Shown: positions 12,950-34,800 of the stretch, one piece after another
Layout of the letters: every line of letters begins with the position of its first letter
Numbering within the stretch: the first letter of the stretch is position 1
Virus record (IMG/VR): IMGVR_UViG_3300032257_000031
Location: 1-43,103 of that record
DNA: 43,103 nucleotides
DNA from: a virus
Lineage: Duplodnaviria > Caudoviricetes
Reading direction: 5' to 3' (one strand)
Position numbers and translations under genes: made by a program
Notes under the pieces: model-generated
Database searches by the model: none
What the model was told of the DNA's origin: nothing
The model's input: only the letters and a program-made list of their open reading frames with translations

Positions 12950-13162
12950 ATGAATACTTGGCCTAATGGATATAAACATGCCATGACGCAATGCGAGCAT
13001 GAAAAATGGAACTCAGGAAATTATCCTGGCACGTTAGAGATTTGCTGTAAATGCGGCGAACCAACTGGAAACTGCGAAGAAGATAACATTGTAAATGAGG
13101 ATGGTGATGCTCATTGTTATGATTGCGCTATTGGCGCGGGGTTAATAGAGGAAGATGTATGA
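12950..13162 (+). CDS. Small Zn-finger-like protein
   Basis: CCKC...C...HCYDC; AGGAG RBS. Confidence 0.6.
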   Translation: MNTWPNGYKHAMTQCEHEKWNSGNYPGTLEICCKCGEPTGNCEEDNIVNEDGDAHCYDCAIGAGLIEEDV

Positions 13163-17094: not shown

Positions 17095-17406
17095 ATGAGC
17101 GAAACACGCACAATCCAGCAGAACAAGGCATTACATAAGTATTTTTCTATGCTGTCTGAGCAATTAAGCGATGCTGGCTATGATATGCGATCAACATTAA
17201 AGCATGACGTTGAAATACCTTGGTCACAAGACAACGTAAAAGCATGTATGGCTAAACCAATAATGATGGCTATGTTTGAAAAAGAGCATACGAGCGAGTT
17301 AAGCACTAAAGAAATCAATGAATTATATGAGGTTTTAAACAGGCATACGGCATCTAAACTTGGAATATCAGTACCTTTTCCAAGCAATGAGCCACCAATG
17401 ATTTAA
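17095..17406 (+). CDS. ninB: NinB-like protein
   Basis: RTIQQNKALH...TSELSTKEINELYE. Confidence 0.65.
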   Translation: MSETRTIQQNKALHKYFSMLSEQLSDAGYDMRSTLKHDVEIPWSQDNVKACMAKPIMMAMFEKEHTSELSTKEINELYEVLNRHTASKLGISVPFPSNEPPMI

Positions 17407-18246: not shown

Positions 18247-18546
18247 ATGGCTAAGCAAACAAAAATAACTAAGTCGGCTCGCAATCAGCCATGCCTTATC
18301 CGCATCCCAGGTGTTTGTAATGGCGTAGATGAAACTACCGTACTATGCCACCTTAACGGGGGTGGTATGGGAATGAAAAGGGCGTCTTATGAGGCGGCCT
18401 ACGCTTGCAATAAATGCCATGATGCTATAGACTTTAGGTCTAAGACAAAATATTCGGCAGAGGAGTTGAAGCTATGGCATCTGGAAGGGGTGATGAGAAC
18501 GATAAAGATTCTAGTGGAGAAGGGGTTGATAGTAATAAACGAATAG
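18247..18546 (+). CDS. DUF1364 (YbcO-like) nuclease-family protein
   Basis: SARNQPCLIRIPGVCN...TTVLCHL...GMGMK...AYACNKCHDAID. Confidence 0.85.
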   Translation: MAKQTKITKSARNQPCLIRIPGVCNGVDETTVLCHLNGGGMGMKRASYEAAYACNKCHDAIDFRSKTKYSAEELKLWHLEGVMRTIKILVEKGLIVINE

Positions 18547-19085
18547 AAAAAGAGTGCAGGTTTTGTAAAAAACTATTTAGCCTTCCAAGATGCAGGGACT
18601 ATAGAGACCACTATTGCAGCAGGGCTTGCGGAAATAAACATAGAGAAGCCATAAAGCAGAGCAGGAAAGCCAAGTGCCCGAATTGCGAGAAAGAATTTAT
18701 AGCAAGAAATGCGCAATTAAGAGATGGGAATAAGCCGTATTGTTCCATTAGCTGCATAACAAAAGGGAAAAAACAAAAAGAAGATCATAAGCGTAAGCGA
18801 CTAGAATCATATATGAGAGGCAATCACCTACATCCAAGCGGGGCAGATGTTCATAACTGGAAAGGCGGAATTGCTCTTACTACGCAAGGGTATTATAAAT
18901 ACTCTGCTGGTGAAAATGCCGGAAGAAATGTACATACGGTTTTAATAGAGCAAAAGATTGGCAGAAGAATTACCAACCAAGAAGTTGTACATCACATTAA
19001 CCATGTAAAAACGGATAATCGAATAGAAAACCTGCGGCTAATGACTAGAGCAGAACACATGAGACATCATTTGCATGAGTCTTGA
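18474..19085 (+). CDS. HNH homing endonuclease with N-terminal Cys4 repeats
   Basis: CRFC..YCSRAC, CPNC..YCSISC, NWKGG, EVVHHINHVKTDNRIENLRLMTRAEH; GAGGAG RBS at 18460. Confidence 0.88.
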   Translation: MASGRGDENDKDSSGEGVDSNKRIEKECRFCKKLFSLPRCRDYRDHYCSRACGNKHREAIKQSRKAKCPNCEKEFIARNAQLRDGNKPYCSISCITKGKKQKEDHKRKRLESYMRGNHLHPSGADVHNWKGGIALTTQGYYKYSAGENAGRNVHTVLIEQKIGRRITNQEVVHHINHVKTDNRIENLRLMTRAEHMRHHLHES

Positions 19086-19143
19086 AGGGGTGGCAAGAAC
19101 GTTGCCCATATTGTTTGAAAAAGGGTTGCTGGAGGTTAAGTGA
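19081..19143 (+). pseudogene. Displaced original 3' end of the DUF1364 gene
   Basis: LEGVARTLPILFEKGLLEVK* parallels LEGVMRTIKILVEKGLIVINE* at 18481-18546. Confidence 0.8.
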
Positions 19144-19352
19144 TGATAAAATTTTGGATGGCATTCTCATTCTTTTTTGTTGGCGTTAATTTTATTCTAT
19201 ATATCGCGGTTGCTTATATTTTTTGTAATCTATCGTGGATGCCGCATATATCATCATGGGGTAACAGTGCTAGAGGATGTTTTCTTCTTTTGGAGGCGGT
19301 TATTTTATTTTACTCCGTTATCTACGCCAACCTCCCTTGGAATAAAGCATGA
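19140..19352 (+). CDS. Small two-TM membrane protein
   Basis: Two hydrophobic segments; GGAGG RBS. Confidence 0.55.
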   Translation: MMIKFWMAFSFFFVGVNFILYIAVAYIFCNLSWMPHISSWGNSARGCFLLLEAVILFYSVIYANLPWNKA

Positions 19353-19386
19353 ATCGCATAAACAAAACATAACCGGAGGTGAAATA

Positions 19387-19677
19387 ATGAATATTAAAGC
19401 AGGAATGATGGTTGAGATTGTTGATACAAAGATAACGTTAGGCGCTAACGTGGGTCTTGATGATACCGCCTTTCTAGGTCATGTCGGCAGAGTGTTGCGG
19501 CCGTGTAATCGTCACGCAGATGCATGGGATATTGAGGGTGCAGAGAGATCGTCTACCGGAAATGCAAGATCTTTTTATAGCGGGGCGCTGCGCCCCATTC
19601 CTGACCAACAAGAACTATCATCATGGGAAGCCATACAAGAACTAACTAAATGGCATCCCCAAAAGATAGAAGCATGA
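19387..19677 (+). CDS. Hypothetical protein
   Basis: GGAGG RBS before ATG 19387. Confidence 0.6.
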   Translation: MNIKAGMMVEIVDTKITLGANVGLDDTAFLGHVGRVLRPCNRHADAWDIEGAERSSTGNARSFYSGALRPIPDQQELSSWEAIQELTKWHPQKIEA

Positions 19678-19816
19678 AACACATAGCTAAAGCATGTTTA
19701 TGCGGCATAATGTGGGCTATCGGATTATTAATGGCTTTGGTGGTTATGATTGAGATTAATAGCTATATTAGTAAAATGTGGTAAAATGTGGCTATGATAA
19801 CGAATAGACATGGATT

Positions 19817-20008
19817 ATGGATACCTTTAACCCTGAGTTATGGGGATACAAGAACGTGCGAGCCGAGCCGTTTGGTAACGGATGGATCGTTGTCGCAAAA
19901 GATCTACCAGTACTGATTGACGAAAATAATACTGGTGATTGGTTTTGCCCGACTCCAGCGTTTTACGAACAAGATTTTATTCCGGTAGCGCGGGCTTTAT
20001 TTGGCTAA
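19817..20008 (+). CDS. Hypothetical protein
   Basis: ORF track. Confidence 0.5.
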   Translation: MDTFNPELWGYKNVRAEPFGNGWIVVAKDLPVLIDENNTGDWFCPTPAFYEQDFIPVARALFG

Positions 20009-20024
20009 TTAAAGGTGTTTAAGC

Positions 20025-20231
20025 ATGAGAATGTCACCAAAGCGGCGCGAAACCATAAAAATGCAGATAGAACATGCCCTTAACATCGGCATGAATGTGT
20101 GCTTTGTTAGCAATAACGGATCGGCAAGAGAAAGGCGCGTTAATGGCATGACCCTGCATAAGTGGGAGTCATTTAAAATCAAAGGGATCAAACCCGACCT
20201 AATTATTTGTGATGACATAGGTGTTAATTAA
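20025..20231 (+). CDS. Small protein carrying a terminase-like Walker-B segment
   Basis: KIKGIKPDLIICDDI vs TerL KIRG...RPGLIICDDM; AAGGT RBS; TAATG coupling to the Q-like gene. Confidence 0.65.
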   Translation: MRMSPKRRETIKMQIEHALNIGMNVCFVSNNGSARERRVNGMTLHKWESFKIKGIKPDLIICDDIGVN

Positions 20232-20812
20232 TGAACTCTGATATTATCTCGCACCTTAACCCTAAAACACAGACCATAGCGGCTACTATAGGCGGCTACG
20301 GAGGACTTAAACCAGAAGATATATGTCATGCCCTATCTGGCCTAAATAAAGGCTCATACACGCTAGGACTCGCCATGCACGGATATGAGGACGCCAGAAA
20401 AGATTTAACAAATTGTTTGATCGAATCAATCCAAGACAAAATAAAACCGCTCGGCACGAATTACACTAGAATATTAGCCTTAATCGCAGTACATGAAGAA
20501 ATTGGCGATAGCCCATGTCAAGTATGCAAGGGGCGCGGATTCGTTTATAAGCAAATAGAACACCCCGATCAAATAGCAATGACTGAAAACGGACTACTTC
20601 CAACGCCATGCACCGCACCGCAATGCGTAGAAGGCGGATATAGAATGACAGACCGGGAGCGCGGCGAACTCATAGCCGAAGCGATAGATCAAAATTACAC
20701 CCAATCAGCATGGCGTAACGGCTGGTCATGGGATTTATCCGAAGCACTTTCTACGCTGTCAGAATGGCAGCATAAACTTAATATTCATTTAGGCGTGAGA
20801 CTGGAAAGATGA
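20231..20812 (+). CDS. Q-like late antitermination protein
   Basis: CQVCKGRG...C...C Zn finger; position at the end of the nin-like region. Confidence 0.55.
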   Translation: MNSDIISHLNPKTQTIAATIGGYGGLKPEDICHALSGLNKGSYTLGLAMHGYEDARKDLTNCLIESIQDKIKPLGTNYTRILALIAVHEEIGDSPCQVCKGRGFVYKQIEHPDQIAMTENGLLPTPCTAPQCVEGGYRMTDRERGELIAEAIDQNYTQSAWRNGWSWDLSEALSTLSEWQHKLNIHLGVRLER

Positions 20813-20997
20813 TCGGATTAGCCCAGATAAAGCCGGAAGGATATGCTTGCATTGTCACATGCCATAGCAAGGGCTATAAATTACCCTATATCAGTAATTG
20901 TCGCGGTGTTGTCGTGGACAATCAGGCTTACACCATGAAGGAATATTCTCGACTATATGTTAAACAGCAGCCATTTTATAAGGGAGCGCAGATATGA
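20809..20997 (+). CDS. Small protein starting with a capsid E-loop-like motif
   Basis: GLAQIKPEG; ATGA overlap with the Q-like gene. Confidence 0.55.
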   Translation: MIGLAQIKPEGYACIVTCHSKGYKLPYISNCRGVVVDNQAYTMKEYSRLYVKQQPFYKGAQI

Positions 20998-21143
20998 AAA
21001 TTAGACGTCTTGATGTTGGCGACGAATTCAAAATAGCCTATTTTCTTGGTATGCGCGCACTCAGAAGGATCGGACATTCAAACAACAAAATATTGAAAGA
21101 TATATTTAAAAAACACCCATTTTATAGAGGCACAGGGCAATGA
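20994..21143 (+). CDS. Hypothetical 49-aa protein (not in ORF track)
   Basis: ATGA overlaps at both ends; GGAG RBS. Confidence 0.5.
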   Translation: MKIRRLDVGDEFKIAYFLGMRALRRIGHSNNKILKDIFKKHPFYRGTGQ

Positions 21144-21460
21144 AAAGACGTTCATTTTTGAAATTATTAGGCGGTGCAGCAGTAGCGGCAACAGCGCCAG
21201 GCGTAGCTATAGAGGCGGCGGTTAAGCCAGAGATTAAGAAAAGTGCAGGGGTAGCGGATAAAAGCAGCCTTGGCCTAGCCGAAATCAAGCAAGAAGGAGT
21301 GGTTGTTAAAAGTGAATTTGGAAATGCACTATGGCCTGGCGCAGAAAAATACTATAAAGCATCTTATGATACCTATAGCCATGAATTGGCTAAAGCATTG
21401 GCTGAATCAATGCGAGAAACACAGAAAAAGGTCGTGTCCAATGTAAAATATGGCTTTTAA
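21140..21460 (+). CDS. Tat-signal protein composed of permuted major-capsid segments
   Basis: MKRRSFLK plus hydrophobic stretch; ALWPG, GLAEIKQEG and ALAESMRET match the MCP. Confidence 0.8.
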   Translation: MKRRSFLKLLGGAAVAATAPGVAIEAAVKPEIKKSAGVADKSSLGLAEIKQEGVVVKSEFGNALWPGAEKYYKASYDTYSHELAKALAESMRETQKKVVSNVKYGF

Positions 21461-21515
21461 GTAGATTTATATCGCAATAATTGCTACTATTAACTAAACA
21501 ATTCCCCCGTTCCCC

Positions 21516-21535
21516 GCCCCTTTTCAGGGGCTTTT
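21516..21535 (+). terminator. Rho-independent terminator
   Basis: GCCCCT-tttc-AGGGGC-TTTT between convergent operons. Confidence 0.6.
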
Positions 21536-21562
21536 GAGGTATAAAGACCAACTCGCTTGTAT

Positions 21563-21712
21563 TTAGGCGTTATCTAATTGCTTTAGCTTACGAAGTGCTA
21601 CTTGGTAAGCGATATAAAGCGGTAACGCTGGCGGCTTATTAACCGGACAATCGTACTCATAGCCAAAGGCCTTGATATATTGCTCACGCATGAATTTTTC
21701 ACCTTGTTTCAT
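21563..21712 (-). CDS. Hypothetical 49-aa protein (not in ORF track)
   Basis: MKQGEKFMREQYIKAFGYEY...; GGGGA RBS. Confidence 0.45.
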   Translation of the reverse strand: MKQGEKFMREQYIKAFGYEYDCPVNKPPALPLYIAYQVALRKLKQLDNA

Positions 21713-21763
21713 TGTATTCCCCTTATAAGCCCACTAGCCACAATCGACTAGGGGCTATATTGT

Positions 21764-23944
21764 TTATTTATCGATAACGACTAGAACAGTATTGATTCCC
21801 GTTCCTGATTCTTTGAAAGATCCCTCTGGAAGCTCTATTTTTTCGCCCCCAAGATTATCGAACCAAGCGCGGAAAGCTTCGCACTTCTTATCGGAGCGGA
21901 AAAAAGGGCTAGGTGACATGATAGCCACAAGCCGACCGGTATCGCTTAGCTGTTTATACGCCCGCATGACATGATCAACATCTTGCAGGTTTTCAAAAGG
22001 CGGATTCATTAAAACACGATCATAAGTTGTTATTTCTTCCCATTTAACGGTTAAAAAATCACGCTTTTCTATCAAATAGTCTTTAGCGTCGGCTATTTCC
22101 GCTAGTGTGTGATTGATTTCAAAGCCTTTTACCTCAGAGCAAAGAGGCGCAACCGCATCGGCAATAGAGCATGATCCTAGATTCGGCTCTAGTATTCTGT
22201 GATGTGGTTGAATATCGGCATAATCTATCATTAAATCGATAACGGCTTTAGGTGTTGGGAAATAGCCTGGTATTTTAGAGAATTGCAGCCCGTCAATGGT
22301 GCGTTTTAGCTCCTCGGCTTGCTTTTGTTCTTCGGTCTTGCCAGTAATCAAAGACCAAAGCGCAACGGCTTCGGGTGTCGTGTGGTGTGGCTCGCCAGTA
22401 CATACAGAGTATGAATGATAACCATTAGGGATATTTGTTTTAACTGTTCCCATAAGATCAAATACGGCTTTTTTGCTGGTTATATTGGCAAGCACAGCGG
22501 GAACTGTTCCAGCATCGTGCATATCAGCCAAGCCTAAAAGGGCTTGCTGTGTTCTTTGCAGCTTTTCCCCCTCTAGGCGTGAATGGTTAGCCTGCGCTAG
22601 TCGTTTTGCTGTATTGGTCGGACGATCTGCAAGCTTGTTGTCGATAACCGGCTGCATTTTGTCAGCCATTGCGCGGAACTTCTCGCCCATGCCCTTGCGG
22701 GGCTTTGGTGGCTCATCGTTTGGGGATTCACCAGACAGAGAAGCAAGAAAAGACTCGGCGCGCTCTTTATCTTCAAAGGCAAAGCCGCCAGGCGTTGATC
22801 CCCATTTGCGAGAGTACCAACCACCAGCGGCCTTGGCATCGTTTCGCACTTCGTTGAAGGTGTCACGATCTAGCCTTGTATCAGGAACAACCATATACAT
22901 GACAAAACCTTTTTTAGTATGTGTGTGCTCCTCAATGTGGGCTTGAATTAAGCTAGAAGATCGAGCAACGGCAGGAGCCGCCACAACTGGCGCGGCTTCA
23001 AACTCAGCCACATAGGATCCTGTTTCTAGGCTCACGCCTTTATAATTGCCGGAAATATCGACACCAGACAGGGCTTGATAAACAGCATCAGACAGCCATT
23101 GACCGCCAATACGCGCATTATTTTCGTATTCGACGCCATAAGACAGGCAAATGTCTTGCCCTACTAGGGTTTTAACTGATTCGCTAATGGTGCGTGACTC
23201 GATTACATACTTAGATTGACCAAGTACAGTAGAAACAGCGGTAGAATATGCGCTATTATCGTTTTCGTAGATGTCATCCATGCCGTTAAAAGATCCATAT
23301 TGATACTTATCAGTGATCTTTTTAATTTCTGAGGCTGGCGCGCCATCCGTCCAGGATACGCTGATAGAGTTACCCATAGAGAAACTATCGGAAGTGACAG
23401 AAAACTTAATATGGGGATAAGCTTGCTTAAGCTCCTTTTTCATATTCTTAGCCGCCCGCGCATGGCTTGACATTCCAGCGTCCAAGCCAATAGCCCACGG
23501 ATACAAGGCGCGAAGCTCATCGGCTTTAGCAGATACCTGGCGAGACTTGTCGGCTTGTTCGGCTTCTCGCTCGCGGTTTTGTTCGGCTATCTCAGCTTGT
23601 CGATCTGTTCTTTGCTCAGGTGTTTCGCGGTTGTCATCTATCGGCATTGCTTCGCGGGCAACTGGCAAAGCGCCTTTAACGGCTTCAATAACTTGATCGG
23701 CGTTATCCTTAGTGATCATCCAGTCGAACTGATCGCCAATTTCACAAAAAAGATCCTCGGCTTTTTGGTTTTCAGTACCCGAAAACATAGTACTAATAAT
23801 ATACTCAGATTCATCTACGCCAGTGACACCAGACTTTTGCAGCCGCTCAAAGCGTAACCGGTCAAGTTCTTTTATAGCGTGCATAGCATTTTTGTGCCAT
23901 TGGTGGCGGTTAGTTGTTCCTGCTGGTAGTTGAAATTTATTCAT
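21764..23944 (-). CDS. Polyvalent protein: LPD29-like domain plus N6-adenine DNA methyltransferase (DarB-like antirestriction candidate)
   Basis: AAKNMKKELKQAYP.IKFSV.S....GNSI.VSWTDG (LPD29-like); YFPTP, ILEPNLGS, VLMNPPF, GRLVAIM, LPEGSFKESGT. Confidence 0.85.
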   Translation of the reverse strand: MNKFQLPAGTTNRHQWHKNAMHAIKELDRLRFERLQKSGVTGVDESEYIISTMFSGTENQKAEDLFCEIGDQFDWMITKDNADQVIEAVKGALPVAREAMPIDDNRETPEQRTDRQAEIAEQNREREAEQADKSRQVSAKADELRALYPWAIGLDAGMSSHARAAKNMKKELKQAYPHIKFSVTSDSFSMGNSISVSWTDGAPASEIKKITDKYQYGSFNGMDDIYENDNSAYSTAVSTVLGQSKYVIESRTISESVKTLVGQDICLSYGVEYENNARIGGQWLSDAVYQALSGVDISGNYKGVSLETGSYVAEFEAAPVVAAPAVARSSSLIQAHIEEHTHTKKGFVMYMVVPDTRLDRDTFNEVRNDAKAAGGWYSRKWGSTPGGFAFEDKERAESFLASLSGESPNDEPPKPRKGMGEKFRAMADKMQPVIDNKLADRPTNTAKRLAQANHSRLEGEKLQRTQQALLGLADMHDAGTVPAVLANITSKKAVFDLMGTVKTNIPNGYHSYSVCTGEPHHTTPEAVALWSLITGKTEEQKQAEELKRTIDGLQFSKIPGYFPTPKAVIDLMIDYADIQPHHRILEPNLGSCSIADAVAPLCSEVKGFEINHTLAEIADAKDYLIEKRDFLTVKWEEITTYDRVLMNPPFENLQDVDHVMRAYKQLSDTGRLVAIMSPSPFFRSDKKCEAFRAWFDNLGGEKIELPEGSFKESGTGINTVLVVIDK

Positions 23945-23976
23945 TATATTACCCTCGTTTTATGGTTGTATTAGTG

Positions 23977-24168
23977 TTATTTATAGTGTGAATTATTGGC
24001 AAGGTTGCGAGAAATAACGCCGGAACGCTCTAGGCTGTCGATATAATCAACATAAACCATGCGCGTATCGGCTGGCTGTTCGTTTTGAGGCTTTCCGCGC
24101 CGTAACTCGATGTTATTCTCACGACAAAAGGCACGAAATGAAGTATTAACTTGCTTTAAACTGTTCAT
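23977..24168 (-). CDS. Hypothetical protein
   Basis: DTRMVYVDYIDSLERSGVIS; GGGG RBS. Confidence 0.6.
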   Translation of the reverse strand: MNSLKQVNTSFRAFCRENNIELRRGKPQNEQPADTRMVYVDYIDSLERSGVISRNLANNSHYK

Positions 24169-24271
24169 AATTAACCCCTTATTTTTTCAATTGCTTCACA
24201 TATAGCAGTCATAACCATAACTACTACGATAATTATTGATGCGATTATTAGAAATTCCATAATATACCCCT

Positions 24272-24460
24272 TTATGCGTTTATGTCTTGAATGTAATACT
24301 GGCTAACAGCAGAAACAAAATTATCTATCTGCAATAAACGAACGCCTAAAGGGCTGTCATAGTAAAACTTACGGGCAAGCTCTAGATCTTCGACCTTTGC
24401 GGGCTTATGGTCTAAAGCGACTAGCTTATTAAATACTGCTTTTGTGATTTCTGAGTACAT
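24272..24460 (-). CDS. Hypothetical protein, first gene of the inverted cassette
   Basis: GAGGA RBS. Confidence 0.6.
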   Translation of the reverse strand: MYSEITKAVFNKLVALDHKPAKVEDLELARKFYYDSPLGVRLLQIDNFVSAVSQYYIQDINA

Positions 24461-24671
24461 GGTTAGATCCTCTTGATTGACGTTATAAACAGCTTAGAGA
24501 AGAAAAGAACATAAATATAATGAAAAGATTCTATACCCACATAAACAGATTTAATGAGGAGGTGATTTATATCTACCAATGACATTACAGGCGACAAACT
24601 ACAGTCAAAGCCTAATACAAAAGCATACCGCGATAACTTCGATAAGATATTTAATAAAGGAGACAAACCCA

Positions 24672-26149: not shown

Positions 26150-26461
26150 ATGATTGATTCCAGTAAGCTGCTTAGTAGCATGCAAGAAACTAATTCCATC
26201 CTTAAAGATGCTTTGCGCCCCACAAACACGCAAGAATGTTTATATTACGGGTACAAGCTATCCAATATTGATTGTGACGATATTGAGACGACTTTTCGGG
26301 ATATATGTATTGGTGCAGAAAGAGACGACGAAAGGGCTATTAAAGAGCGGGTTAAAATATTCCTTCCTGATTCAGGAGATGAAATAGACTTAGAAGATGT
26401 GTTGCGATTTTCCGCTAAGCATTGTCGAGGCATTTACGACAGAGTTGGGAGCGAGATATGA
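26150..26461 (+). CDS. Hypothetical protein
   Basis: GAGGT RBS; ATGA overlap with the next gene. Confidence 0.6.
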   Translation: MIDSSKLLSSMQETNSILKDALRPTNTQECLYYGYKLSNIDCDDIETTFRDICIGAERDDERAIKERVKIFLPDSGDEIDLEDVLRFSAKHCRGIYDRVGSEI

Positions 26462-26922
26462 AAAGACGTAATTTCCTAAAAGCACTTGGTTGCGCCCCAT
26501 TACTATATGCTGCTCCAGCTATTGCGATACCCGAAAAAAAATCGATCGTTCCGAAAACGGTGAGCGAGTTGAACGAAATGATTTTGGCTTACCTGCCTAA
26601 CGATCCAGTAATTAATTATGGCGACGCGATAGCTATATCAAGTATTGGCATAATCCCGCCATCTGCATATAAAGATATGTCGAAATCTAAGCATCACAGT
26701 TATCGCCATGAGTATGTTGTCGCTCAGTACCGCAAAAACATAGATTACGAAGAAGATGACGAAGTAGAAAGCCTCGTCATGCTTGCTTGGCTAGATTTTC
26801 AGAAAAAGGCGAAGGGGGCTAAAAAGATGTATGTGCGGAGAAACATGGAACTAAGCCATGTAACCGATCGGGGTAATATGACGGATTGGCGTATTGCTGG
26901 CCGGTATTCATTTTACCGATGA
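26458..26922 (+). CDS. Tat-signal protein with capsid P-domain-like segments
   Basis: MKRRNFLK...AIA signal; YRH......Y.......EDD..E and KMYVRRNMEL...D...RYSF match the MCP. Confidence 0.75.
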   Translation: MKRRNFLKALGCAPLLYAAPAIAIPEKKSIVPKTVSELNEMILAYLPNDPVINYGDAIAISSIGIIPPSAYKDMSKSKHHSYRHEYVVAQYRKNIDYEEDDEVESLVMLAWLDFQKKAKGAKKMYVRRNMELSHVTDRGNMTDWRIAGRYSFYR

Positions 26923-27134
26923 AAGACCTTAACGAATTCAACCTGCGCCGAGCCGTTCAGCTTTTAGACGAGAGGTCTGGAGGCAAGGACGGCGTTGTGT
27001 TGCATATTAACGTTTCCTTATTTTCCGAAGCGCAAGAGTTTATTGCGAAAGGACTTGTTTCTCGATTGGTCACAATGGGAAATGATGGCTGGTCTTTATC
27101 CCGTAACGGGGTTGGCGTGAATGGTAACACCTGA
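26919..27134 (+). CDS. Small protein resembling the capsid A-domain
   Basis: DLNE...G.KD, L......F..A and DGWSL registers match MCP residues 165-250; ATGA overlap. Confidence 0.55.
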   Translation: MKDLNEFNLRRAVQLLDERSGGKDGVVLHINVSLFSEAQEFIAKGLVSRLVTMGNDGWSLSRNGVGVNGNT

Positions 27135-28554
27135 TGCGGTATTTGGTTTCGTTAATACGATTCTCGCCTCTGGGTTAGACGGATACAAGAAAACCCCTGA
27201 CTGCCATCGTGAGTGGTGGGAATTATGCTGCTCCGACGATGAAAAGGTTGCGATAGCCGCCCCCCGAAATCACGCAAAGACTTCCGCGATAACCATTGCC
27301 TATTTGTTAATGGAGCTGCTTTACCGACAGCAGAAATACGCAATCATTATTTCGGATACCGAAGATCAAGCGATTGAGTTTTTAGACGGCGTTAAATTCC
27401 ACCTAAAAGACAACGAAGAACTGATACAAGCCTTTGGGGTTTCTAAGCTCACTAAAGACGGGCAAACAGATACCATTGTTCAAATGTCAGATGGGCATGA
27501 GTTCAGAATCCTTGCGAAAGGCGCAGAGCAGAAGATTCGTGGCCGTAACTGGCGCGGCGGGCGGCCTGGTTTAATCATCTGTGATGACATGGAAAATGAC
27601 GAGTCGGTAATGAATTCTGAGCGGCGCGCTAAGTTCCGTAGATGGTTCTTCTCAGCAGTTAGACAATCACTACGCGATGGTGGTAAGATACGCGTCGTAG
27701 GGACAATTTTGCATGATGATAGCCTACTGTCCCGATTAATGAAGAACAAAACGTGGACTTCACGCCTTTATTCCGCCCACAAATCCTTTAATGACTTTTC
27801 CGATATTCTATGGCTTGAAAAATGGCCTAAAGAAAGGCTAATGGAGAAAAGGCAGGAATATATTGAAGAAAATGACCCAGAAGGCTATTCACAAGAATAT
27901 TTAAACGATCCGGTTGTATCGCAAAACGCCTATTTCCGCAAAGACGACTTTGTTGAAATGGCAAAAGAAGAACATAACTTGCGAATGACCTATTACTCGG
28001 CGGCTGATTTCGCCATATCCCAAGCTAAAAGAGCGGACAACACCGCCATTATCACGGTAGGCATCTGTCCAGAAGGGTTGATGTACGTCGTTGATCTAAG
28101 AATGGGTCAGTGGGATTCGCTTGAGATCGAAGCCGAGCTATTTGCCGTACAAAGAAAGTACAACCCTGAAATCTTTACCTTTGAGACTGAGAAGATTGAT
28201 AAGGCGATCGGGCCTTATTTAAGGCAGTCTATGATAAGAGAGAACGTTTATCTCAATATCGATAAAATCGTACCATCGAAAGATTTAACGGTGCGTTGCC
28301 GAGGCATTCAGGCGCGACATAAAGCCGGAACAATCAAATACGACATGGACAAAGACTGGTTTGCTATTCTGCAAGAACAGATGATGCGCTTTCCAAAATC
28401 AACAAAAGACGACGCTGTAGCCGCTTTTGCGCTTATCGGCATGACTCTCGATAAACAAATCGAGCCTTCCAACGACGAGGAGTATGAAGACGAAATGTAC
28501 GAAGAAGAATTCGGGCAATCATACTTCGGTCAAGATGCGGTGACAGGATATTGA
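27121..28554 (+). CDS. terL: Terminase large subunit
   Basis: APRNHAKT Walker A, LIICDD Walker B, VVGT, YSQEYLNDP, AADFA and KDDAV nuclease motifs. Confidence 0.95.
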   Translation: MVTPDAVFGFVNTILASGLDGYKKTPDCHREWWELCCSDDEKVAIAAPRNHAKTSAITIAYLLMELLYRQQKYAIIISDTEDQAIEFLDGVKFHLKDNEELIQAFGVSKLTKDGQTDTIVQMSDGHEFRILAKGAEQKIRGRNWRGGRPGLIICDDMENDESVMNSERRAKFRRWFFSAVRQSLRDGGKIRVVGTILHDDSLLSRLMKNKTWTSRLYSAHKSFNDFSDILWLEKWPKERLMEKRQEYIEENDPEGYSQEYLNDPVVSQNAYFRKDDFVEMAKEEHNLRMTYYSAADFAISQAKRADNTAIITVGICPEGLMYVVDLRMGQWDSLEIEAELFAVQRKYNPEIFTFETEKIDKAIGPYLRQSMIRENVYLNIDKIVPSKDLTVRCRGIQARHKAGTIKYDMDKDWFAILQEQMMRFPKSTKDDAVAAFALIGMTLDKQIEPSNDEEYEDEMYEEEFGQSYFGQDAVTGY

Positions 28555-30605: not shown

Positions 30606-30753
30606 TTGGGAGCTGGGCACACTTGATGCCAGTGATGAGTGGGTAAGGGGTCATTTGGGCGCTTTATCCGATATTCTTGAAGTGACGGTTGAAGGCCTTG
30701 AATATGAAAGTGAGATCGAAAAAGAGATAAAGGAAGCCGCTCATGGAGAATGA
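30511..30753 (+). CDS. Hypothetical head-module protein
   Basis: F..WK.DP.TQ motif typical of the post-portal gene. Confidence 0.6.
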   Translation: MEKETFGLWKNDPTTQAVWRAIQLKHKHLQRDWELGTLDASDEWVRGHLGALSDILEVTVEGLEYESEIEKEIKEAAHGE

Positions 30754-31054
30754 ATCCGGTTATGATCCGTTAGATTTACGCGTCTTGATTCGCCTTGACG
30801 AAGTAGATGATACATTTGAAAACTCCAAGATTATTAAGCTCGAAAAGACCGTTAATGAAGGGAATATGCAGCAAGTCACAGGCACTATCATTGCTTGCGG
30901 TGAAAATGCGTTTTGCGAGTTAAATAATAAGCCGAAAGCTGGCGACAGAGTGGTTATCGGTAAATATGTTGGTTGGCTAACAACCGGCGACGACGAGAAA
31001 GAATACAGAATCATCAATGATGAAGACGTAATTGCATTTAGGAGAGAGAAATGA
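30743..31054 (+). CDS. groES: GroES-like co-chaperonin
   Basis: PLDLRVLI...GTIIACG...K.GDRV..GKY.G...EYRIINDEDVIA. Confidence 0.85.
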   Translation: MENESGYDPLDLRVLIRLDEVDDTFENSKIIKLEKTVNEGNMQQVTGTIIACGENAFCELNNKPKAGDRVVIGKYVGWLTTGDDEKEYRIINDEDVIAFRREK

Positions 31055-33000: not shown

Positions 33001-33030
33001 ATGGCAGTTATAACATCGGGAAATCACCCT
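33001..33030 (+). CDS. Major capsid protein, exon 1 (MAVITSGNHP)
   Basis: AAGGAG RBS; joins in frame to KALWPGV at 33919. Confidence 0.88.
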
Positions 33031-33918
33031 TCTTGCTGAGGGGCCTTAACAAGTAATTGTTGAGTAAACAGGCATTTAACTGCTGGGAACTCTCGTAGGC
33101 CTATGGTAGGATAATACATGGCGACATGTATCGACCCCTTATAATCCATAGGATAGAGACAATCAGCATCCAATCTTAAAATGTATTACGTATATAGACT
33201 TCTTAATAAAGCCAATCAGAAATCATACATTGGTATAACCTCCAGAACCGTAAAAGAACGGTGGCTTGAACATGTTTCAAGAATCAAGTCCGGTAGGAAC
33301 AGTAGGATATATGCAGCTTTAAGAAAGTATGGACAGGATGGCTTTGAAGTCATCACTCTTGAGGAAACTAGCTCAGAAGATGAAGTGAGAAAACTAGAGG
33401 AAGATTACATTAAACTCTATGACTCATATAGTAATGGCTACAACTGCAATTATGGCGGGTGTGGCACATTATGTTTTTCTGACGAAATCCGGAAAAAGAT
33501 TAGCAAAGCCCAGATCGGCAAAGTCATATCTTTAGAAACAAGAAAGAAAATGTCCGAAGCGAAACTTGGAGACACCAGATGCGCTAAGCATTTCGGAGAA
33601 CATACCTCTAAGGGCGGCAAAAATCCCAGATCAAAATATTTTTTAATCGGATTGCCAGATGGCACCGAAAAAGCCATACAAGGGATTAGAGAATTTTGCA
33701 GAGATAATAATTTGCAATATGCCAAACTTAGCTCGAAAGGTAAGACCAAGGGATTTAGCATTTTAAGAAGGTTCATCGACTATCCAGAAATGGAGTACAC
33801 TCAAGTGAGTGGAAATGGTGCCTACCCCTCAGGGGTAAAGATATAGTCAGCTCTGCATGGAGACATGCAGCAGTCGAAAGACGGGCAAGGGGTTAACGAA
33901 CCTTGTTGAACATAAAGG
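33031..33918 (+). mobile_element. Group I intron (IA2-like), 888 nt
   Basis: P1 CCCU|UC paired to GAGGGG with U-G at the splice site; P AACUGCUGGGAA 33078; Q AAUCAGCA 33161; P7 GACUAU 33778 / AUAGUC 33843; P3 GGCAUU/GGUGCC; P7.1, P7.2, P8 and P9 hairpins; terminal G 33918. Confidence 0.93.
33181..33846 (+). CDS. Intron-encoded GIY-YIG homing endonuclease with NUMOD3-like repeats
   Basis: YVYRL.N..N.KSYIGIT...RW.EH, E..YI..YDS..NGYN, SDEIRKKISKA / SLETRKKMSEA. Confidence 0.92.
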   Translation: MYYVYRLLNKANQKSYIGITSRTVKERWLEHVSRIKSGRNSRIYAALRKYGQDGFEVITLEETSSEDEVRKLEEDYIKLYDSYSNGYNCNYGGCGTLCFSDEIRKKISKAQIGKVISLETRKKMSEAKLGDTRCAKHFGEHTSKGGKNPRSKYFLIGLPDGTEKAIQGIREFCRDNNLQYAKLSSKGKTKGFSILRRFIDYPEMEYTQVSGNGAYPSGVKI

Positions 33919-34800
33919 AAAGCACTCTGGCCGGGCGTAAAAGCATGGTGGGGTCATGAATACGATGAGTGGAATGAAGAATATAAAGACTTATTCGACA
34001 TGGACACTTCAACCCAAAACTACGAAGAAGATGTACAGCTAACCGGCTTCCAAGCTGCTCCTATTAAGGGCGAAGGCGCTGGCGTTGCATACGATTCTGA
34101 AACACAAGGCTTTGTAACTCGTTACAAGCATGTTGTTTACGGTTTGGGCTACATTGTTACGCGCGAAGAAATGGAAGACGGCTTGTACGAAAAAGTCTCT
34201 AAAGGCCGTGTTACTGCATTAGCAGCCGCTATGCGTAATACAAAAGAAACTGTTGGCGCAAATATCTACAACCGCGCATTTAACACTTCTTACACCTTTG
34301 GCGACGGCAAGCGAATGATCTCTAACGATCATCCAAATGCTATCGGCGGCACGTTCTCTAACGTGGCAGATACGGCGTCCGATTTATCGGAAGCGTCTAT
34401 CGAGGACTTGAATATTCAGATCATGGGGGCTAAAGGCCCGAAAGATTTGCAAATCAACCTTATGCCACGCTGCTTAATCGTTCCGCGCCAAGAATTCTAT
34501 AATGCTAACCGCATTTTGAAATCTGTGCTGCAAAACGATACCGGCAATAACGCTATCAACGTACTGAAATCAACTAATGCACTCCCAGATGGCATTAAGG
34601 TGAACCATTACCTTACTGACTCTGACGCATTCTTTATTCGTACCAGCGTTAAGAACGGCTTAAAGTGCTACCAACGACGCGCTATTGAGTTTACTAAAGA
34701 CAACGATTTCAGCACTGAAAACGCCCTTGCGAAAGCAACTGAGCGGTATTCTTTCGGTGTAACAGATGTTCGTGCTGTCTACGGAAACCCAGGCGTATAA
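33919..34800 (+). CDS. Major capsid protein, exon 2 (HK97 fold; spliced product 303 aa)
   Basis: KALWPG, A.IK.EG, YKH..Y.LGY.VTRE..ED.LY, ALA..M..TKE, GDG, DLSE, YLTD.DA.F, ERYSFG. Confidence 0.92.
   Translation, partial: KALWPGVKAWWGHEYDEWNEEYKDLFDMDTSTQNYEEDVQLTGFQAAPIKGEGAGVAYDSETQGFVTRYKHVVYGLGYIVTREEMEDGLYEKVSKGRVTALAAAMRNTKETVGANIYNRAFNTSYTFGDGKRMISNDHPNAIGGTFSNVADTASDLSEASIEDLNIQIMGAKGPKDLQINLMPRCLIVPRQEFYNANRILKSVLQNDTGNNAINVLKSTNALPDGIKVNHYLTDSDAFFIRTSVKNGLKCYQRRAIEFTKDNDFSTENALAKATERYSFGVTDVRAVYGNPGV

Follow-up and report, generated by a model that had tools for sequence, protein, structure and literature searches.

A small orphan phage gene with a terminase-type Walker-B-like tail ahead of a Q-like gene

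The last small gene ahead of the putative late switch of this phage encodes 68 residues that end in a segment reminiscent of the Walker B region of large terminases, which raises the questions of whether this likeness reflects descent from a terminase and, if so, what the product of so short a gene might do. The original prediction proposed a decoy of the phage's own terminase, directed at the Avs receptors that recognise this enzyme and built from two matched segments, one at the tail of the protein and one further upstream. We consider these claims in the window, by which we mean the whole stretch of 43,103 nucleotides that was analysed. The record is that of a whole 43-kb phage with direct terminal repeats. 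Two microbial-mat runs contain its DNA, the record possibly deriving from one of them, and no RNA run is listed as containing it.

The frame and its genomic setting

Gene order in the window is lambdoid, leading from a leftward Sak-like recombinase gene through genes for replication initiation, a NinB/Orf-like protein and a YbcO nuclease to HNH genes and, further on, from small genes of no named function through a Q-like gene to terS, terL, portal and head genes (Table 1). The 68-codon frame is the final small gene before the Q-like gene, in an accessory region which we take to be a nin region. The predicted placement just ahead of Q holds in that the frame directly precedes this gene, the identity of which as Q is itself weak (phrog_127, E 0.003). 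The open frame and its translation bear out the predicted product of 68 aa on the plus strand, with KIKGIKPDLIICDDI close to its end.

Judging from a putative ribosome-binding site, coding-like codons and an overlap between its stop and the first codon of the Q-like gene (TAATG), the frame reads like a gene. Its codon score of 0.024 compares with -0.224 +/- 0.111 in non-coding frames (4 of 300 as high) and with 0.163 +/- 0.109 in coding windows, which are part of the training set and of which 9 of 60 score as low. An antisense frame of 69 codons was rejected as the true gene (codon score -0.243). The DNA from 20004 to 20229 recurs, identical in sequence, in a contig from a second microbial-mat sample. 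A scan for promoters performed at chance, with 19 found against 18.6 expected.

Other features of the record are of separate interest. Between the Q-like gene and terS, and on the opposite strand, lie a polyvalent-protein gene and two small leftward genes, a group which is a candidate counter-defence cassette. Two paralogous genes (mutual E 2e-5) begin with twin-arginine-signal-like leaders, and a GroES-like co-chaperonin gene sits between the portal and scaffold genes. An 888-base insert interrupts the major capsid gene after codon 10 and, from its sequence, looks like a group I intron: its features include a U.G pair in a 5'-end hairpin, a final G and an S-like AAGATATAGTC element, it houses a GIY-YIG homing endonuclease gene, and in related phages the two flanks form one continuous frame (14 capsid starts). 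Rfam at gathering score returned no match in this insert.

Table 1. Positions, within the window, of the features discussed in the text
Feature	Position	Strand	Remarks
Replication initiation gene	at 13123		
NinB/Orf-like gene	17095..17406	+	phrog_72, E 1.4e-4; marks the lambdoid nin-type accessory region, of which the 68-aa ORF is the last gene
Shine-Dalgarno-like AAAGGTG	20011..20017	+	7 bases upstream of the ATG; read from the sequence, putative function
68-aa orphan ORF	20025..20231	+	open frame; alternative start at 20031
NVCFVSNN	20094..20117	+	strand predicted behind a helix; resembles terminase motif Ia no more than expected by chance
Terminase-type Walker-B-like segment KIKGIKPDLIICDDI	20175..20219	+	ORF residues 51-65; predicted strand 57-62
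Q-like antiterminator gene	20231..20812	+	phrog_127, E 0.0029 (weak call); ATG overlaps the ORF stop
Paralogous gene, first copy	21140-21460	+	twin-arginine-signal-like leader
Polyvalent-protein gene	21764-23944	-	726 aa; LPD29 domain and C-terminal DNA methyltransferase-like domain
Paralogous gene, second copy	26422-26922	+	twin-arginine-signal-like leader
Large terminase TerL	27121..28554	+	intact, 477 aa; phrog_38, E 1.5e-74; NF033889, E 1.8e-11
TerL Walker B segment	27547-27591	+	residues 145-157 in the BLASTP alignment
GroES-like co-chaperonin gene	30743-31054	+	phrog_3188, E 2e-8
Major capsid gene	33001-34800	+	split gene
Capsid-gene insert	33031-33918		888 bases
GIY-YIG homing endonuclease	33181-33846		inside the capsid-gene insert

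The terminase-like tail and the rest of the protein

BLASTP aligned the product with the Walker B region of the phage's own TerL at 8 of 13 identities, with P.LIICDD common to both; this core of the original observation stands, and the longer pairing originally drawn needs a 5-residue gap. The alignment score was reached by 16 of 5000 shuffles, and among 258 ORFs compared with TerL the frame came first once length was corrected for. In an all-against-all comparison of 259 window ORFs the same pair reached E 0.03, a weaker match than that of an evident chance pair (E 0.001). A first terminase profile matched the frame at E 2e-4, but five members of that profile had been found using the frame itself. 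Against an independent profile of 19 terminases, collected without its use, the frame ranked first among 2727 short ORFs (E 0.03, the next at 0.49) and scored 11.2 bits, a value reached by 0 of 5000 shuffles. At the level of sequence, then, residues 51-65 match the terminase Walker-B segment beyond chance, with a corrected chance estimated at about 1 in 100 when some 60 small genes are allowed for.

These figures bear on the possibility of a chance or convergent motif, in which the product of a genuine small gene, unrelated in fold, happens to end in a hydrophobic strand and two aspartates. The pair was chosen by eye out of many gene pairs, its all-against-all E value lies among those of chance pairs, the rest of the protein scores at chance (below) and Pfam, PHROG and NCBIfam yielded no match to any family, all of which such a motif would accommodate. 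It would have more difficulty with the independent profile, the score of which no shuffle attained, and with the location of the match, which falls on the most conserved motif of terminases, upstream KG and P positions included: a Walker B (hhhhD[DE]) preceded by RG/KG is present in the frame. On balance we regard coincidence or convergence as unlikely.

The company kept by this motif was surveyed with a DNA pattern for [RK]G-x-x-P-D-h-h-I-x-D-[DE], which returned 119 viral loci from the 18 of 64 parts of the collection that were scanned. With the motif masked, 88 of the 119 belong to this terminase family, 87 of them carrying DD like the frame, and inspection by eye assigned the remaining 31 mostly to other terminases, together with three SF2 helicases, one DnaB-like protein and two accessory proteins. 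The last two (L044:2-679, and L134, minus strand, 3-635) are unrelated viral proteins with an isolated KG/RG-x-x-PD-hhh-x-DE patch; that of L134 is preceded by a strand and helix some 40 residues upstream, and the protein resembles a condensed ATPase core. Separately, two copies of a 127-kb record (L031 and L033) bear, at about 1501-1551, a Walker-B-like stretch of 25 codons with stops on both sides, which may come from a terminase or helicase gene that has been interrupted. Non-self matches from the locus searches fell in terminases throughout (4 of 4 and 2 of 2), a result which is partly circular because the motif itself had served as the seed. Among 21 records whose terminases are related or share the motif (5 of these records being at least 90% complete), the 4 matches obtained all lay inside terL.

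The likeness stops at the tail. The Walker A P-loop (R-x-x-[GA]-K-[ST]) is absent from the translation and a profile test for it performed at chance, as do residues 1-50 as a whole on a profile of 50 terminases (drawn from 105 usable loci, 9 loci having been dropped by eye as non-terminase or unclear), where 592 of 3000 shuffles equalled or beat the best segment and 1445 of 3000 equalled the two-segment chain. The upstream segment NVCFVSNN, which had been likened to TerL YAIIISDT, has 1 of 8 identities with it; its placement on motif Ia is third best, with 8.7 bits where shuffles average 10.7. A two-part mimic is thus unsupported, and the second match amounts to no evidence, because residues 1-50 score at chance. 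The full ASCE core and the C-terminal nuclease domain are also absent, the protein ending 3 residues past the matched segment. Since there is no Walker A, the product is predicted to be non-catalytic, in agreement with the earlier view that it is no ATPase.

Structure prediction yielded a model of mean pLDDT 58, with helices at residues 5-20 and 44-49 and strands at 24-29, 35-38 and 57-62. A condensed P-loop half might show this order of elements (a helix following the P-loop, then the motif Ia strand, an edge strand and Walker B), an arrangement suggested by the model and without backing from the sequence. With a model of such low confidence, fold searches carry no weight either way: Foldseek returned no match at E 0.001 or better from viral and PDB libraries, and VIA-align gave RuBisCO small subunits as its best match (Z 5.0), with no terminase among the best 50 matches listed. 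Structure neighbours of the low-confidence model in the Atlas include KdpD, RecA and thymidine kinase at a TM of about 0.55, which is below the bar for naming.

The relation of the tail to the resident terL is likewise distant. The spacing KG-x-x-PDL fits short-type terminases, such as that of locus L117, better than it fits the phage's own TerL, where 5 residues are inserted, and the segment and its counterpart in terL are identical at 24 of 45 bases. Because of this spacing and the low DNA identity, a recent copy of the phage's own terL was rejected, and the same two results count against mimicry of the genome's own TerL. A decayed second terL was also rejected, because no further terminase remnant occurs in 226 six-frame pieces of the region 18500-24500. 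We infer that the tail may instead descend from the terminase of another phage.

Searches for relatives were uniformly negative. The frame and its parts drew no family match from Pfam, PHROG or NCBIfam; among proteins of similar length the frame matched only itself, and among longer ones nothing; a mixed profile built from the frame and 12 Walker-B pieces recovered the frame alone. A phmmer search of 1.84 billion representatives returned the frame and four rows, three of which, on examination, proved to be repeat proteins or long proteins unrelated to it, the fourth being of 5033 aa. A sequence search of solved structures yielded designed repeat proteins only, and a metagenome scan (57 of 64 parts) the same contig only. 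No other short gene ending in the motif was found at any of 4 loci, nor among at least 239 loci listed, in the latter case with regard to start-stop-coupled genes only. The nearest feature neighbours listed in the ESM Atlas are 30 unnamed clusters, the top three of which are viral, 69-78 aa long and score 0.87 (below the lead threshold of 0.9), and the nearest named neighbours are P-loop domains of helicase or AAA type. The frame is an orphan accessory gene, the tail of which is likely terminase-derived.

Possible origins and roles of the product

The reading that we prefer, with a confidence somewhat short of even, is that of a non-catalytic accessory protein with a tail from a terminase-type ATPase, translated together with Q and binding a host protein, the target and effect being conjectural. 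Under this proposal the last 15-18 residues would be the ATPase remnant, within what may be a small alpha/beta fold; translation would be coupled to that of Q and would presumably precede synthesis of the terminase; and the product might act through contacts with other proteins, in taking over the host or in countering its defences, as the kind of protein typified by the T4 protein vs.8 and by Ksap1 and Ksap2. Should it fit the pocket of Avs2, precedent suggests that triggering would be likelier than blocking. The signal behind this explanation is confined to 15 residues of a single sequence.

A terminase decoy proper, as originally predicted, would be made before TerL and sit in a sensor (Avs1-3 or Upx) that it does not activate, thereby shielding the real terminase from detection. 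The motif is of terminase type, and the position before Q would place expression ahead of that of TerL. Terminase is sensed by Avs1-3 and Upx (PMC13601566). As Upx has been modelled on unfolded strands of the ATPase core, by beta-augmentation, and Avs3 contacts active-site residues of the terminase (PMC13601566), a short strand mimic is conceivable; moreover, the authors of PMC11564622 suspect that a further factor hides the terminase of SECphi18 from KpAvs2. Set against this, vs.8, Ksap1 and Ksap2 all activate Avs2 in co-expression tests (PMC11564622; PMC13601566), and Avs2 reads shape rather than a linear Walker-B peptide, the interface of EcAvs2 burying 2833 Å2 with a bridging ATP (PMC13601566). 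The product has no ATP-binding loop. Upx toxicity is largely retained when the aspartates of Walker B and nuclease are mutated (PMC13601566), so that DD need not be under selection by a sensor. Further, the 21 records with related terminases (5 at least 90% complete) hold no match to the frame outside terL. A complex prediction that paired the product with the C-terminal 680 residues of one Avs2 (genome G289, a stand-in host) scored 0.00 with a partner of uncertain fold, and speaks neither for nor against binding. No terminase decoy is described in the accessible parts of PMC13581612, PMC12409349, 10.1101/2025.06.06.658234 and 10.64898/2026.06.04.730250, nor did one emerge from a literature search the coverage of which leaves out most subscription papers. 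We consider a decoy of this kind improbable, chiefly because all three small proteins tested switch Avs2 on and because the sensors read shape or backbone; what speaks for it above all is the position ahead of the late switch and the strand-binding mode modelled for Upx.

We attach a similarly low probability to a more specific version, in which a terminase ATPase has shrunk to a 68-residue, ATP-blind core that is produced shortly ahead of late transcription and plugs a terminase sensor, most plausibly strand-binding Upx or the pocket of Avs2, without activation. If true, bacterial NLR-like immunity would here be countered by a pattern decoy, and vs.8, Ksap1 and Ksap2 might then be decoys too, ones which some sensors learned to read.

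Very improbable, in our judgement, is a recently captured terminase fragment, functionless so far and retained only as a spacer for translational coupling with Q: orphan status and the overlap of its stop with the Q start are compatible with such an origin, which is at odds with residues 1-50 that do not read as terminase, the lack of other fragments nearby, the frame's own ribosome-binding site and its coding-like codons. The Walker-B strand of terminases lies buried within the ATPase sheet and makes no subunit contact, which, together with spacing unlike that of the phage's own TerL, renders barely credible a brake on the packaging motor that would bind TerL or TerS and delay packaging until late, for all that a terminase-like segment in a gene ahead of the late switch might hint at one. 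A remnant of a response-regulator receiver (helix, strand, PDLIIxD), acting on host two-component signalling, is just as hard to credit: a 30-sequence receiver profile gave 3.3 bits over a weak, 13-residue match (54 of 5000 shuffles as high), far below the terminase score (11.2 bits, 0 of 5000), the first strand with its acidic pair and the C-terminal half are missing and there is no match to the Pfam receiver (PF00072), the marginal receiver-like structure matches of Ksap1 (PMC11564622) notwithstanding.

Comparison with terminases and small terminase-like proteins

Large terminase ATPases (phrog_38 / NF033889-like, the phage's own TerL included) have RG/KG-x-x-P-D-hhh-x-DD in common with the product, which differs from them in its length (68 against 477 aa), in the lack of Walker A, coupling motif and nuclease domain, and in residues 1-50, which are not detectably related. 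The role of countering a sensor, as proposed for the frame, is filled against Avs3 by the anti-Avs proteins ORF55 and ORF83 of DruSM1 (EVADES); these are DNA ligase-like and DprA/phosphoribohydrolase-like, respectively, unlike a terminase mimic (10.1101/2025.06.06.658234).

Closer in kind is T4 vs.8, a terminase-ATPase-like phage protein which shares with the product its small size, its accessory nature, a terminase-like Walker-B region and a location outside the packaging module; unlike the product, it spans 167-219 aa, keeps both Walker A and Walker B and is toxic with EcAvs2 (PMC13601566). A pairwise comparison of the two was at chance (987 of 2000 shuffles as high). Ksap1 (74 aa, Dhillonvirus; 158 records found) and Ksap2 (111 aa, Stephanstirmvirinae) resemble the product in their very small size and in a predicted terminase-like sheet with helices, a secondary structure also ascribed to them in PMC13601566. 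They differ in lacking a clear Walker-B motif, in being conserved within genera and in binding and activating Avs2, specifically KpAvs2, from which ksap1 mutants escape (PMC11564622; PMC13601566). In a pairwise comparison with Ksap1 from Dhillonvirus, 253 of 2000 shuffles (90 of 2000 with cheap gaps) scored as high as the product, and tblastn of the frame against annotated phages gave no match to Ksap2 (Bas60_220).

In sequence, the product stands outside the vs.8 and Ksap1 families; as a kind, it would belong among the small terminase-like accessory proteins. What benefit such proteins bring to phages is a question posed in PMC13601566, the authors of which suggest that they may serve in anti-defence and have come to be recognised by Avs2. 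With 68 residues and no more of a terminase than the Walker-B end, the product would be shorter than vs.8, Ksap1 or Ksap2 and, depending on whether it blocks a sensor or triggers it, would represent either a decoy of a sensed phage pattern or a fourth non-terminase activator.
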